The translations under genes and the position numbers were made by a program. This document shows, piece after piece, positions 17,787-45,845 of a stretch of DNA of 64,000 nucleotides (positions are counted from its first letter, which is position 1; every line of letters starts with the position of its first letter). Source of the DNA: an uncultured Verrucomicrobiae bacterium (GTDB taxonomy: Bacteria > Verrucomicrobiota > Verrucomicrobiia > Palsa-1439); contig CAWIJG010000002.1 of assembly GCA_963836315.1 (NCBI GenBank), forward strand, positions 1,447,786 through 1,511,785, read 5' to 3'. Below the pieces are notes generated by a model. It did no database searches and was not told where the DNA came from. It saw only the letters and a list, made by a program, of their open reading frames with translations.

Positions 17787-17975
17787 CTATAAAAGTATGT
17801 TTTTGCGAAGCGAACCCAACTGAAAATTTCGCATCTATTTTGGCATTAACCAATTAAGTAAAATGATGGTTGGGTTCGGTCGACCGGACCGAACCCATTT
17901 TGAGGGGTGCCGGAAGCGTTTTGGTGTCGAAAACGGGGTGGTTTTGACCAAACCGAACCCAAAGCGAACCCAATT
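17787..17975. repeat. CGAACCCAAC inverted-repeat element, copy C (diverged)
   Basis: CGAACCCAAC at 17811-17820 and GTTGGGTTCG at 17869-17878 (48-nt spacer); more CGAACCCA motifs at 17890, 17954 and 17965; flanks resemble copy B. Confidence 0.8.
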
Positions 17976-18221
17976 CAAGGCACCGGGCGGCGGCAACTCC
18001 GAAAAGGATTCGCGAGCAGGCCCATGCTACACCGGGGCGGCTGGGACAGCCGCTACTACACGAGGGCAGGCAGCCGAAACTACAAGGGAGGTCGGGAAAC
18101 TGTGCCAGTACGAAGCATTGACTCTGTGGATTTGAATGAGGACATTACTTACGCCGCGTGAAGGCACGCTGACTACAACGACAGAGATGCTTCGACAAGC
18201 TCAGCATGACAGACTGATTGG

Positions 18222-18884
18222 ATGATTCGACTTGAAAACATCAGCGTGGAGTATCGGCTCCAGAGCGAGCGCGTGCTGGCGCTGCGCAACGTCAATCTGC
18301 ATGTCCGCGAGGGCAGTTTCGAGGCCATCATGGGGCCGAGCGGTTCGGGGAAGACGACGCTGATTCAGCTCATTGCCGGGTTGCTCACGCCCACGGCGGG
18401 CAACGTGGTCGTATCGGGTGAAAACCTGAATCATCTGGACGACGACAAGATCTCCGCGTTTCGCAACCGCACGATCGGCTTCGTGTTTCAGTTCTTCAAC
18501 CTGCCGGCCTACTACACGGCGGTGGACAATGCCGCGTTGCCGCTGGTGTTTGCGGGCGTGGACGAAGGCGCGCGGCGGATGCGGGCCCGCGCGTTGCTGG
18601 CGGAATTCGGGTTGGAGGAACGGCTGGAACACAAGCCCGATCAGCTTTCCGGCGGCGAAGCGCAGCGCGTGGCCATCGCCCGCGCCCTGATCAATAATCC
18701 CAAGATCATCCTGGCCGACGAGCCGACGGGCAATCTCGACCGTGAGACCGGCACGCGCATGATGGAACTGTTGCAGCGCATCAACCGCGAACGCGGCGTG
18801 ACGGTGTTGATGGTCACACACGACGAAAAGGCGGCCGCGTTTGCCCAGCGCGTCATCCGCATCGAGAAGGGGGAGTTGGTGTGA
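18222..18884 (+). CDS. ABC transporter ATP-binding protein (LolD/MacB type)
   Basis: GPSGSGKT, IGFVFQFFNL, LSGGEAQRVAIARAL, ILADEPTGNLD, VTHD. Confidence 0.96.
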   Translation: MIRLENISVEYRLQSERVLALRNVNLHVREGSFEAIMGPSGSGKTTLIQLIAGLLTPTAGNVVVSGENLNHLDDDKISAFRNRTIGFVFQFFNLPAYYTAVDNAALPLVFAGVDEGARRMRARALLAEFGLEERLEHKPDQLSGGEAQRVAIARALINNPKIILADEPTGNLDRETGTRMMELLQRINRERGVTVLMVTHDEKAAAFAQRVIRIEKGELV

Positions 18885-20393
18885 TTCGGCGGCGGGATTA
18901 TTTGCGGTTGACGACGCAGAAGCTGGGACTGCGGAAGAAGCGGGCCGTATTTGCGATCCTTTCCGTTGCTCTCGGCGTGATTGTGGTGGTCAGTGTGAAT
19001 TCCCTGATGGAAGGCGTGCGCGATGTGGCCGTAAAGACGATTTGGACGGAGGAGATCGACCCCAACGTCATCCGGGTATACGCGGGAGAGAATCCGTACG
19101 AGTTTACGTCGCCCGAGGAGGGACAAAAGCAAAAGGCCAGGAAGCGGATGCAGTATTTGAGCGAGTCGGTGTTCGATGAGATTCGCGGCTGGTCCGGGGT
19201 CGAAGCCGCCGACCGGCCCGTCGTGGTGGCGCCCGTGAGCATCAGCGCATTCGGCAAGAGACCGCAGCCGGTTGCCGAGCTTCAGGGTGTGCCCGAGCCG
19301 ATGCTGCTGGAATACGTAACGGACCGCGCGCTGGTGACCGGCAGCACCAACTCGATCCCGCTCGTTGTCGGGGAGCGGGAGGTGCGATTGCGCTTCGATG
19401 AAAAGCGCGGCAAACTGGGGGACGACCCGGCGGGCGAAAAGAACCTGGCTGGGGCGGGAAGTGACCATCGTTCTCGGCGACAACTACGCGCGACTGTCGG
19501 GTTTCGCCTATGATTACGCCAAGCGCAAATACCAGCCGGTGAGCGGCGACGATGTGACGGCGCAACATGACGCCATGGAACGCAGCTTCCGCGGCATGTA
19601 TGATACGACGATCTTCAACACCACGCTCACGCTCAAAGGGCGGGTTGTCGGTTTCTGTCCGGGTAGCAAAGTGTTAATGCCGTTTGACACGGCCGTCATG
19701 TGCGAGAAGTGGCTCGACCAGCGCCGGCGCCTCGCCTTGCGAAATCCCCCACCCGCAACGGACGAGGTGGTGTACGGAGAACGCGGACGCCGCACGCCCA
19801 GATCGGGTGAATACACCGAGGGGGTCGTGCTGGTGAAGCCCGGCGCGGACATCGAGGCCGTGGCCAAACGCATCGAAGAGATGGGGTTTTCCGCGGCGAC
19901 GCGGGCGCGCACGTTCGAGAATCAGGCGCGCGCCTTTGACAGCACGGTGCGCATTGTGAAGCAAGTCGCGTTCGCGTTTGGCAGCTTGATTCTCGGGCTG
20001 GCGTGCGGGCTGGTATGGAGCACCACCTCCAAGACCGTGTCCGACAGCCGCGTCGATATCGGACTGTTCCGCGCGCTCGGCGCCACGAAGCGGGAGATTC
20101 GCCGCTTGTTTCTCGGCGAGGCGGTCTTGCAGGGGGTGCTCGGGACCGTGTTCGGAATGGTGTTGGGTTGGGCGCTGGCGATCGGGATCAGCCATTGGGT
20201 CATCAACTTCGCCCGAGGGCAGGTGTTTGACCCCGAAGAGGCGCTGCTCATCCCCGACTCGATTTTCTCCATCAATCTGAGATTTTGCCTCCTGCTGATC
20301 GTCGGCGCGGCGCTGGTTTCACTGCTGGCCGGTCTGCGGCCCGCCAATCGCGCCGCCAACATCGATCCCGTCAAGGCGCTGAAGAGGGAATAA
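18881..20393 (+). CDS. MacB/FtsX-family ABC permease, split by an apparent +1 frameshift near 19440
   Basis: N-terminal half (18881..19513, ILSVALGVIVVVSV) and C-terminal FtsX half (to 20393, IGLFRALGAT...AANIDPVKALKRE) lie in different frames; removing one base at GAAAAGAACC joins them. Confidence 0.8.
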
Positions 20394-20412
20394 CGGTTCG
20401 GTGCACCAGGAA

Positions 20413-44527: not shown

Positions 44528-45187
44528 ATGAATCAACGACTCCGGGTTTTCTGGCGGGAATGGGTTTTACCGGCGTTGGTGGCGGTCGCCGTCCTTGCGC
44601 CGTTGCGGTCGGCGGTGGCGGATTGGAACGATGTGCCGAGCGGTTCCATGATGCCGACGATTCTCGTGGGCGACCGGATTTTCATCAACAAGCTGGCGTA
44701 CGATCTCAAAGTCCCGTTCACCACGTGGCAGATCGCCAAGTGGGCCGACCCGCAGCGGGGCGATATTATCGTGTTCCCGTCGCCGACGGAGGGTATACGG
44801 CTCGTGAAGCGCGTCGTCGCGGTGCCGGGTGACCGCATCGAACTGCGGGACGATCATCTCTTCATCAATGACGAACCGGCTTCCTATGCGTTGATCGACC
44901 GCGGCACGCCGTCGGCCCTGATCGTGAGTGAGACCGTTTCCGGGAGAACTCATCCGTTGCGGATTGAGCCGCAGAGACCGGCAATGCGGTCGTTCGGGCC
45001 GGTAGAGGTTCCGTCGGGATGTTACTTTATGATGGGTGACAACCGGGACAACAGTGCCGATTCGCGCTATTTCGGGTTCGTGTCACGGGACCGCATCCTG
45101 GGCCGCGCGACGACGGTGGCGATGTCGTTCGACCACGACCATTACTACAAGCCGCGATTCGAGCGGTTCGGCCAGAGCCTGCATTGA
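44528..45187 (+). CDS. lepB: Signal peptidase I
   Basis: VPSGSMMPT (Ser), GDRIFINK, LVKRVVAVPGD (Lys), MMGDNRDNSADSRYFG. Confidence 0.96.
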   Translation: MNQRLRVFWREWVLPALVAVAVLAPLRSAVADWNDVPSGSMMPTILVGDRIFINKLAYDLKVPFTTWQIAKWADPQRGDIIVFPSPTEGIRLVKRVVAVPGDRIELRDDHLFINDEPASYALIDRGTPSALIVSETVSGRTHPLRIEPQRPAMRSFGPVEVPSGCYFMMGDNRDNSADSRYFGFVSRDRILGRATTVAMSFDHDHYYKPRFERFGQSLH

Positions 45188-45272
45188 CGCATTCGCCAAG
45201 GCTACGGTGCGCCCCGACAGAGCGGGGCGGCTACAAACACAGCGTGCGGGAGCGGGTCAAGCCACCGCACGG

Positions 45273-45303
45273 CAAGGCGGCGTCGAGCCGCCGCACTCCA
45301 AAG
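45273..45303. repeat. REP-like hairpin ending in GCACTCCAAA
   Basis: GGCGGCGTCGAGCCGCCGCACTCCAAAG; GCGGC/GCCGC stem. Confidence 0.6.
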
Positions 45304-45310
45304 CGGAGCG

Positions 45311-45845
45311 AAAAGAAAAGCTTCCAAACCTTCCAAACCTTCCAAAGTACACATACGGTATTTCCGGAAGTTGTGAGAGAATCGGGGTGTGAGAGAAAGG
45401 ATTAGGAGTCAGTTTTGAAAACGACTCGGAGGAGGCGATGCGCCTCAAGACAGGAGATCGGGGAGCCCCCTCACCTTAATCCTCTCCCCTCGAGGGGCGA
45501 GGAGACAGGAGGCCGGAAGTCCCCTTACCTTAACCTTTGCTCCGAACTCCGGTGCGGGGCTCCGTGGCGCCTTGCGGACTCGGCTCCTCTCAAGGGGGGA
45601 GACAGAAGGCAATTGCGACCTTGGAAATGGAGGTTGGCAGGGGGCCTCTCTTATAGAAAAGAGTGTTTCTGCCAAACGAACCCAACCAAAAAAATTGTAT
45701 CTGTCTCGGCATGAATGTGTTGGGAAAAAATTCAGGTTGGGTTCGTTTTGCAAAAAGAGGAAAAAAAGAGGCAAAAAACGGGAAATAAATGCTGGAAAAC
45801 AGCTCCGGGAGGGTGGTTTTTACGCACAAACGAACCCGATTTGAG
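45311..45845. repeat. CGAACCCAAC inverted-repeat element, copy B, with inserted REP-like hairpins
   Basis: IR at 45677-45686 and 45736-45745 (49-nt spacer), third motif at 45831; reverse-complement homology to 29947-30245; CCCTCACC-type hairpin inserted at about 45467-45505. Confidence 0.9.

Follow-up and report, generated by a model that had tools for sequence, protein, structure and literature searches.

The 64,000-nucleotide stretch of DNA analysed here (the window; positions 1,447,786–1,511,785 of contig CAWIJG010000002.1, assembly GCA_963836315.1, from an uncultured Verrucomicrobiae bacterium) raises the question of what is specified by three short inverted repeats, designated C, A and B in the order in which they stand, whose halves enclose an AT-rich spacer of nearly constant length. 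A first-pass annotation had listed them as an unnamed non-coding element and had offered four explanations: a non-autonomous mobile element, an attC-like recombination substrate, a binding site for a nucleoid or partition protein, and a structured RNA. The three repeats and their spacers of 48, 50 and 49 nt were recovered exactly as described, and the pattern CGAACCCAAC-N40-60-GTTGGGTTCG matched nothing in 100 dinucleotide-preserving shuffles of the window. From the comparisons presented below we tentatively favour, at a shade under an even chance, the structured RNA, each copy being the hairpin of a self-promoted, untranslated RNA cassette which behaves as a dispersed repeat; such a family of structured-RNA units is most likely previously undescribed.

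The source genome, G000 (4.2 Mb in 17 contigs, 59% G+C; the window is C2:1447786-1511785 in its numbering), was compared with 18 congeners, carrying G-numbers and including the sister species G002, and with 250 other Verrucomicrobiota genomes. Searching G000 with CGAACCCAAC-N47-50-GTTGGGTTCG yielded 47 exact copies where none was expected, which stand apart from one another on 11 of the 17 contigs and occupy both strands. Their spacers measured 48 nt (22 copies), 49 nt (23 copies), 47 nt (one) and 50 nt (one); the fixed geometry noticed in the window is a fixed loop length between two stem halves. Among the 125 exact half-sites of the genome, 94 were arranged convergently, and no half-site was arranged divergently. 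Allowing up to two mismatches per arm raised the count to about 75, and an nhmmer profile of 270 columns around the inverted repeat detected about 100 copies, each an oriented element 230–250 bp long, with none in the window beyond the three. As the element is asymmetric, every copy can be oriented, and one strand of the loop is A-rich. Conservation reached about 40 nt to the left of the arms (GGGG..CTCTATAGAAGAGTGTTTCTGCCAAA, which contains the left flank recognized earlier) and about 95 nt to the right, where the element ends in one to three extra CGAACCCAA half-sites. This 9-mer occurs 236 times in G000, 191 times inside elements and nine times in other intergenic DNA. At least three subfamilies, differing chiefly on the right side, could be distinguished; A and B belong to the major one, are mutually inverted and have a block of (TTTGGAAGG)x3 in common (30212-30238 and 45321-45347), and the more diverged C belongs to a second, separate subfamily. 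The third, CGAACCC-like site was likewise found, at 17890, 17954 and 17965 after copy C and at 45831 after copy B, and in a degenerate form near 29923 for copy A. Every detail of the first-pass description that was compared with the sequence proved accurate.

The exact 10-bp arms with a 48- or 49-nt loop were present only in G000 and G002, the latter with 62 copies. With the looser pattern AAACGAA[C/G]C-N52-82-G[C/G]TTCGTTT, 17 of the 18 congeners gave 6–142 copies each, the extremes of the genus being G011 with 142 and G008 with no element at all, and the same pattern read backwards gave none. In the 250 other Verrucomicrobiota genomes two single matches were obtained, no more than with the backwards-read control. 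The hairpin module is confined to one genus of peat-soil Verrucomicrobia. The remaining congeners have a fixed but different geometry: the loop measures about 69 nt, the 3′ arm begins 88–90 nt after the 5′ arm, and another half-site, the third, follows at +102. Some units carry a second complete hairpin after the first, and G011 has tandem clusters of elements. Some units in G007 (L071, L078, L084 and L096) and G006 (L072) represent a hairpin-less variant of the repeat family, in which an inverted partner is missing and two half-sites stand in direct orientation about 55 nt from each other (AAAACGAACCCAAGTTT...AAAAACGAACCCAAATT). Purine-rich GGAGACAG/GAAGACAG repeat tails often stand behind the last half-site and are a recurrent module of these intergenic mosaics (e.g. 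G000 C2:550844, C7:329899 and C2:204602; G002 L066, 1360-1410).

An alignment of 118 unique hairpins, in which plain mutual information between columns was computed, was used to examine the stem. The outer stem AAACGAACC/GGTTCGTTT was invariant, whereas the inner four to five pairs differed among subfamilies and species and yet remained complementary, as in ACCG/CGGT, ATTT/AAAT, GATT/AATC, AAAT/ATTT, CCGGATT/AATCCGG and CGAAGCC/GGCTTCG, the last being a swapped pair seen in every G003 copy listed. The column pairs with the highest mutual information were exactly the predicted stem partners: UA 54, CG 35 and AU 19 at columns 12/84; AU 64, CG 35 and UA 10 at 11/85; GC 59 and AU 55 at 10/86; UA 78 and GC 26 at 13/83; CG 93 and GC 16 at 9/87. 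Canonical pairs filled 94% of the cells, compared with 58%, 48% and 31% when the partners were slid by one or two columns. Because the strongest covarying columns are the stem partners, the pairing itself appears to be under selection, on the promoter-sense strand. In most copies the stem is a perfect duplex of 10–17 bp. Short motifs recur in the loop, namely GUAUC/GUAAC, GUUA(C/U)G and, in G000, ATGAA.

Stem mismatches on the promoter-sense strand were of the G.U type in 32 instances and of the A.C type in 11, and all three window hairpins were predicted to fold more stably as sense than as antisense RNA: hairpin C with −23.9 kcal/mol (z = −3.0 versus −2.6), hairpin A, whose inverted repeat extends to 17 bp (TGCCAAACGAACCCAAC / GTTGGGTTCGTTTTGCA), with −29.1 kcal/mol (z = −4.9 versus −3.9), and hairpin B with −33.6 kcal/mol (z = −6.6 versus −3.6). 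Since the 3′ arm is followed by a further half-site of the 5′ type, a short local hairpin is also possible, which reads GGGUUCGUUUU-GG-AAAACGAACCC (or GGGTTCGTTTT-GG-AAAACGAACCC) in most species and GGGTTCGGTC-GACCG-GACCGAACCC in copy C; its flanking pairs co-vary between the two forms (TTTT/AAAA versus GGTC/GACC).

Every core in G000 is preceded by one of two modules, U1 or U2. U2 has the form TATCG-N5-YGATA-N3-6-TGCTGGAC[A/G]-N17-TATAGG/TATAAT, and 61 of its 63 occurrences in G000 have a core on the same strand within 61–349 bp; of the other two, one stands before a degenerate core and one is a chance match. The part from the palindrome to TGCTGGAC was matched exactly 55 times in G000 and was also found in G002, G005, G007, G011 and G017. 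Of 147 copies, taken from G000, G002 and four further congeners, 138 conformed to the pattern TGGAC[A/G]-N17-TA(T/G)RR(T/G), with a −35 of TGGACA or TGGACG, a 17-nt spacer of variable sequence, and a −10 that is most commonly TATAAT in G002, TATAGT in G005, G011 and G017 and TATAGG in G000. By consensus, U2 is a putative sigma-70-type promoter and would be the own promoter of a unit. In a variant, U2′, the ATCG-N5-CGAT palindrome lies inside the promoter spacer instead of upstream of the −35; its occurrence in both positions is what is expected of an operator. U2 modules that lack a hairpin stand before ordinary genes. In G017 (L100, C5:146847-147697) U2 is followed, without a hairpin, by an insertion sequence (IS)-type DDE transposase gene (MSARFVNIDRCTPMLLPPDLREWI...), which is probably an IS that inserted secondarily into a linker.

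U1, of the form (TTCCAAACC)x3-AAAGTACACTAACG..., was found 52 times in G000, 36 times before a core. In G000 and other species it also stands directly before protein genes, complete with Shine–Dalgarno sequence and ATG, and since it heads protein-coding genes in this manner it can be regarded as a promoter region in ordinary use. Such genes, introduced by (TTCCAAACC)x3-AAAGTRCACTMACG, the Shine–Dalgarno sequence and ATG, belong to at least three unknown protein families in several congeners (in G000 at C17:434954, C2:1301299, C7:162487, C5:61831 and C9:43592; loci L028-L036), with N-termini that include MKNTLSVNRIEANRMNALKSTGP..., ...LPAHIREELHHKLHDGWRF... and MNWMSKLALLVGRKKFEDFAQ...; here U1 resembles a promoter common to a set of mobile or accessory genes. 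Module and core are separated by a linker of variable length, owing to the insertion of GC-rich hairpins that resemble repetitive extragenic palindromes (REPs) and end in CTAC. These hairpins (GGCCGAGACGGCCGCTACTACA and similar, ending CTAC(A/T)) are of the GTAG-tagged kind, form a separate family and often lie between promoter and hairpin; in the window they were seen at 17735-17758, 18040-18062 and 45868-45897, and they occur in many other linkers.

Seven nucleotides after the U2 −10, about where transcription should start, lies the motif GTT[C/G]TTTGA. It was found at this offset in 49 of 61 G000 U2 promoters and within 32 nt of the −10 in 55 of them, as well as in all 16 of G002; these U2-linked motifs account for 54 of the 146 occurrences in G000. 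One of its forms, GTTCTTTGA, is identical to the core of the 16S rRNA leader in G000, G017 and G008 (cgtGTTCTTTGAaaattg, about 190 nt before the 16S gene), and stands 7 nt after the −10 in 14 copies of G000, six of G002 and 21 from other species. The 9-mer of the genus aligns with the boxA sequences of both E. coli (UGCUCUUUAACA) and Aquifex (GGCUCCUUGGCA) (PMC3177189). We describe GTT[C/G]TTTGA as a boxA-like element, which may also work as a boxA. The 16S leader of the genus itself (L276, G000 C9, 975-1320; also L277 and L273) carries, besides its boxA GTGTTCTTTGAAAATTG, the promoter-like sequences TTGCAT...TACTTT and CTTGACA-N17-TAGATA, with GGTTCTTTAG soon after the second of them, all of which are conserved in three species.

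No match to a known RNA was obtained for the elements. In gathering mode, Rfam 15 recognized a fluoride riboswitch alone in the window and nothing on the elements, and at E-values up to 5 it returned only generic miRNA-precursor hairpins with 17–19 bits against cut-offs of 70–94; full-text literature searches by sequence and by topic yielded nothing relevant, and none of the named families that we considered fits. The lack of conserved coding capacity was confirmed by reading-frame analysis. A frame does run through the 5′ arm (...EECFCQTNPTEKCGSIVE*, often stopping in the conserved ATGAAT); however, in the majority of copies a start codon is absent or stops lie 9–18 nt upstream, there is no third-position excess or 3-nt periodicity (mean entropies 0.80, 0.97 and 0.70), and congeners carry frame-shifting indels between ATG and arm. 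A sigma-54 promoter over the arms was rejected since its GG/GC spacing is off by one, box C/D-like CUGA/AUGA motifs since their order is wrong and the host is a bacterium, the tRNA T-arm likeness of GGTTCG since no tRNA was found, and an invertible promoter switch since the loop has the same orientation in all copies.

The sequence of events which we propose for the structured-RNA cassette is as follows. The sigma-70-type promoter with its ATCG-N5-CGAT operator would fire, and as the operator is shared one DNA-binding regulator could control all copies. The transcript would start at or beside the boxA-like GUU[C/G]UUUGA, whose core is that of the 16S rRNA leader; in rRNA leaders boxA loads Nus factors and guards an untranslated RNA against premature termination, and such a start would make sense only for an untranslated transcript. 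RNA polymerase would then cross a dispensable linker that tolerates REP insertions and transcribe AAACGAACCC(N3-4), the fixed-length A/U-rich loop and (N3-4)GGGUUCGUUU, the ends of which would pair in a stem of 13–17 bp. With the extra 5′ half-stems that follow, the 3′ arm could pair either backwards, giving the long hairpin, or forwards, giving the short local one. We infer that this pairing takes place in RNA rather than in single-stranded DNA; RNA is favoured by the near-obligatory linkage to a promoter whose geometry is conserved, by a start that resembles boxA, by the bias of wobble pairs towards one strand and by the better folding of the sense strand. By analogy with the RNase III-cut leader–trailer helix of rRNA, the stem may serve as a processing or protein-binding helix.

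Several observations weigh against this proposal. Outside G000 and G002 the boxA-like motif follows only 27 of 80 U2 promoters. The majority variant in G000, GTTGTTTGA (40 of 55), has G at the position of boxA C5, mutation of which abolishes lambda N antitermination (PMC3177189), and the commonest −10 in G000, TATAGG (24 of 55), is without the usual final T. A terminator scan revealed no canonical intrinsic terminator in any of the three window units, which have only a weak 4-bp CC-GGGAG-GG stem followed by TTTT. A role as guide RNA was rejected, since the variable loops found genomic targets no better than shuffled loops did (top score 32.2 bits for both), and no helix within the loop was supported by covariation in the 118 hairpins. 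The independent covariation events are fewer than the sequences because about six stem types are shared by subfamilies, and the covariation is also compatible with a hairpin that the same strand forms as single-stranded DNA. Furthermore, one third of the copies face a convergent gene, so that the setting of a 5′ leader is not found throughout.

Copies are always intergenic and occur in either orientation. In a tally of 99 copies built on crude gene calls from open reading frames (ORFs), 66 pointed at a same-strand downstream gene, with a split of 33 versus 15 in tandem contexts, and 33 were directed at the 3′ end of a gene that converges on them, frequently at a distance of no more than 50 bp. 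At the locus of copy B, G005, G017 and G006 have a spacer of about 75 bp between the signal peptidase gene and the gene for an extracytoplasmic function (ECF) sigma factor, compared with about 700 bp in G000 and G002; as the spacer of these relatives is so short and the proximal upstream sequence of the sigma gene has been retained, unit B is an addition. Conversely, a locus filled in G002 (L066) is empty in G000. The flanks of 27 G002 copies were traced to a place in G000, and in 23 of these cases G000 has a copy there as well. Such positional orthologues were nevertheless no more alike than random paralogues and often belonged to different subfamilies; at the copy B locus even the upstream module differs (U1 in G000, U2 in G002), and the flank is species-specific (TTTTTACCAAACG in G002 copies versus TTTCTGCCAAACG in G000). 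Orthologues being no closer than paralogues, the family must have undergone concerted evolution or repeated replacement at the same sites; both gene conversion and repeated insertion at the same sites are possible ways in which the copies are kept alike. It also follows from concerted evolution that the likeness of orthologues cannot be used as a test of constraint. Comparison of filled with empty sites gave no clean junction and no readable target-site duplication, the flanks being diverged and crowded with other repeats.

The most serious competitor of a structured RNA is a selfish DNA repeat of the REPIN, bacterial interspersed mosaic element (BIME) or miniature inverted-repeat transposable element (MITE) kind, which would form a hairpin in single-stranded DNA and be moved by a transposase or recombinase supplied in trans, with the half-sites as its binding sites and the promoter as cargo or as a by-product of persistence; we consider it possible but unlikely. 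The restriction to one genus with 0–142 copies per genome, the filled and empty sites at copy B and L066, the tandem clusters of G011 and the homogeneity of variants within species, always between genes and in either orientation, are all as such a repeat would have them, so that this part of the mobile-element idea stands. Its half-sites alternate (-> <- -> ->) as REPs do in BIMEs, the R-3 palindrome (13-6-13) is like the core sites of recombinases, and covariation and strand bias suit single-stranded DNA as well as RNA. What did not hold is the anatomy. The inverted repeat is internal, with conserved sequence extending 30–250 nt past both arms, and neither terminal repeats nor a target duplication were seen; a classical MITE was rejected since conserved sequence continues beyond the arms, for 40 nt or more on the left and 95 nt or more on the right, and a promoter lies 100–350 nt upstream. 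In a search that was not exhaustive no autonomous IS with the same ends was found, and no U2 of G000 encloses a transposase gene. Y1 transposase genes (PF01797) are present in all 18 congeners and do not track the elements, G005 having one gene for 54 hairpins and the element-free G008 four genes. The positions held in common by G000 and G002 point to little recent movement, and the strict linkage of a promoter with a conserved geometry is unexpected for a transposase substrate, so that a selfish repeat leaves the promoter unexplained. With REP/BIMEs and the REPINs and RAYTs of E. coli and Pseudomonas the family has in common high copy number, intergenic position, lineage specificity, alternating hairpin-forming motifs, mosaics with other repeat modules and long persistence at orthologous positions. 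It differs from them in a half-site (AAACGAACCC) that is neither palindromic nor tagged with GTAG/CGTC, on which ground a REP was rejected, in a fixed loop of 48–69 nt with conserved motifs, in having its own promoter and in the lack of correlation with Y1/RAYT genes, and true REP-like hairpins sit in its linkers. The Correia elements of Neisseria, ERIC/IRU and bcr1-type repeats (about 100–250 bp) likewise have inverted repeats around an AT-rich centre, and can carry promoters and be co-transcribed as RNase III-sensitive hairpins; however, in Correia elements the inverted repeats form the ends and a TA duplication borders them, whereas here they are internal to an oriented unit of 350–550 bp, no target duplication was found, and the promoter lies 100–400 bp upstream with a separate operator.

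A portable cis-acting promoter and leader, providing a downstream gene with a regulated, termination-resistant promoter and a stabilizing or regulatory 5′ hairpin, is an improbable account of the family as a whole, although it may be partly right for those copies, two thirds of the total, which face a gene. It would explain the bias towards same-strand genes, the three window copies facing genes for an ABC ATPase, a YhbY-domain protein and an ECF sigma factor, and the presence of U1 and U2 elsewhere directly before ordinary protein genes, and the choice between L:R and R:3 pairing recalls an attenuator platform. It would not explain the copies at convergent 3′ ends, the retention by the ECF sigma gene after B of an ancestral proximal promoter region conserved in congeners without the element, distances to the downstream start that range from 30 to about 2000 bp, downstream genes that share no function, or the absence of a U-tract terminator to be switched. 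Double-stranded DNA sites for a nucleoid-associated, partition or regulatory protein, with the AT-rich spacer as a bend (e.g. an IHF-like ATGAA-N4-TTR), are very unlikely. The invariant outer half-site, the direct repeats with an 11-bp period at the 3′ end, and the A-tracts and near-IHF consensus of the G000 loop are of the kind such sites would have; but the IHF motif is present only in the loop of G000 and G002, the loop of the other congeners being different, the 9-mer is nearly confined to the elements, a protein site has no need of inner stem positions that vary and yet stay complementary, and because the excess of G.U mismatches is strand-asymmetric, pairing in a single strand is favoured over a double-stranded site. 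Integron-type attC sites are effectively refuted. In G000 and G002 the arms ACCCAAC and GTTGGGT do fit the consensus RYYYAAC/GTTRRRY, and the length of 68 bp is within the attC range; a repeat with a variable centre and a plausible hairpin in single-stranded DNA also recalls the Vibrio cholerae repeats, in which the inverted repeat is imperfect. Yet the copies are dispersed singletons outside cassette arrays, each with its own promoter, the best match to an integron integrase (TIGR02249) scored 81.7 bits against a cut-off of 265, the arms of congeners (CCCACCG/CGGTGGG, CCCATTT/AAATGGG and CCGGATT/AATCCGG) are off the consensus, and the perfect stem has none of the extrahelical bases typical of attC. 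Of the four explanations offered at the outset, the structured RNA is therefore the one best supported, by a covarying stem and a putative promoter upstream of every copy.

A bolder version of the structured-RNA reading, which we hold to be distinctly doubtful, is that each unit would be a miniature rRNA-operon-like gene with a repressor-controlled promoter, a Nus complex recruited by boxA, a AAACGAACCC/GGGUUCGUUU processing stem and, as its product, a fixed-length small RNA. This RNA, of 48–50 nt here and about 69 nt in the relatives, would be freed by RNase III or by a dedicated nuclease, its conserved motifs would frame variable segments, and 50–140 distinct small RNAs would arise from one regulon, an arrangement with no described counterpart. 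Like an rRNA operon leader, the unit has a promoter, a boxA-like GUUCUUUGA with the 9-mer core of the genus's own 16S leader, and a long-range stem around an untranslated product, in this order. It differs in that the enclosed RNA is of 48–69 nt and is not an rRNA, the boxA-like motif lies at the extreme 5′ end and mostly has G at C5 in G000, and the stem has no sequence relationship with that of 16S processing. The small RNA (sRNA) families Qrr, LhrC and csRNAs are similarly intergenic, with their own promoters, a conserved scaffold with variable segments and possibly a common regulator; the present elements differ from them in a copy number 10–20 times higher, the lack of a canonical terminator and of targets by complementarity, and repeat-like evolution.

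The positions of the three units and their parts are listed below.

Table 1. Components of the three units in the window (positions counted from the first nucleotide of the window).
Feature	Positions	Strand	Remarks
Unit C, whole cassette	17630..17980	+	nhmmer match C2:1465529-1465783; U2 promoter, linker, hairpin, extra half-sites; diverged subfamily 2
Unit C, operator-like palindrome TATCGGGAATCGATA (ATCG-N5-CGAT)	17630..17644	+	5 bp upstream of TGCTGGAC
Unit C, putative sigma-70-type promoter	17653..17682	+	−35 TGGACG 17653-17658, 18-nt spacer, −10 TATAGG 17677-17682; by consensus only
Unit C, boxA-like motif GTTGTTTGA	17690..17698	+	begins 7 nt after −10
Unit C, left flank CCTATAAAAGTATGTTTTTGCGAAG	17787..17810	+	TATA-containing mini-palindrome and GTTT-N5-AAAC; position profile of 65 copies
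Hairpin C	17811..17878	+	5′ arm 17811-17820, loop 17821-17868 (48 nt), 3′ arm 17869-17878
Unit C, local palindrome GGGTTCGGTC-GACCG-GACCGAACCC	17872..17896	+	3′ arm pairable with third half-site instead of 5′ arm
Unit C, direct half-sites CGAACCCAAAG, CGAACCCAAT	17954..17974	+	11-nt period; 3′ end of unit; present in most copies
Unit A, whole cassette	29915..30246	-	nhmmer match C2:1477931-1477685, minus; U1 module, hairpin, tail
Hairpin A	30013..30082	-	5′ arm 30073-30082, loop 30023-30072 (50 nt), 3′ arm 30013-30022, in element orientation
Unit A, U1 module	30130..30246	-	three 9-bp repeats, plus-strand TTTGGAAGG at 30212-30238
Unit B, whole cassette	45312..45845	+	nhmmer match C2:1493399-1493645; U1 repeats 45321-47, linker, hairpin, tail
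Hairpin B	45677..45745	+	5′ arm 45677-45686, loop 45687-45735 (49 nt), 3′ arm 45736-45745
Unit B, third half-site CGAACCCGA	45831..45839	+	CC-GGGAG-GG-TTTT motif just before, 45805-45822

The promoter of unit C is not called by a simple promoter scanner, the last base of its −10 being G. Unit C points at the gene for the ATP-binding cassette (ABC) ATPase and unit A toward that for the YhbY/CRM-domain protein (29837-29538, assigned by Pfam). Unit B, whose linker is swollen by REP-like inserts (about 45401-45645), lies upstream of the ECF sigma-factor gene (45958-46545); this gene has retained a proximal promoter region of its own. Just upstream of it, the sequence at 45905-45957 (GAACCTTCGTGCCGTTGCCGTGTCCAACTGATTGCGTTACGATG) is conserved in congeners without the inserted unit and is likely to be the gene's own, possibly autoregulated, ECF-type promoter. 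Elsewhere in the window, the fluoride riboswitch (RF01734, 24929-25000, plus strand; 41.6 bits against a gathering score of 34) lies directly upstream of an ORF at 25013-25441.

For annotation, the units account for many of those long intergenic stretches that look 'empty' in these metagenome-assembled genomes, and their modules offer a portable, probably regulated set of promoters for the poorly tractable Verrucomicrobia. The species-wide swap of the stem in G003 and the shortening of the loop in G000 and G002 would provide a natural case of the concerted evolution of a dispersed RNA element. Should the family instead be a selfish repeat acting at the DNA level, it would still define a new kind of substrate, a hairpin moved by a mobilizing enzyme. 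The combination of operator, promoter, boxA-like start, covarying stem and fixed loop is present in no known REP, BIME, Correia, ERIC or sRNA family. The units may also be a case in which the antitermination signal of rRNA is employed beyond rRNA operons. If they are transcribed as proposed, members of this genus would devote about 1% of their genome to some 100 co-regulated, untranslated hairpin RNAs.

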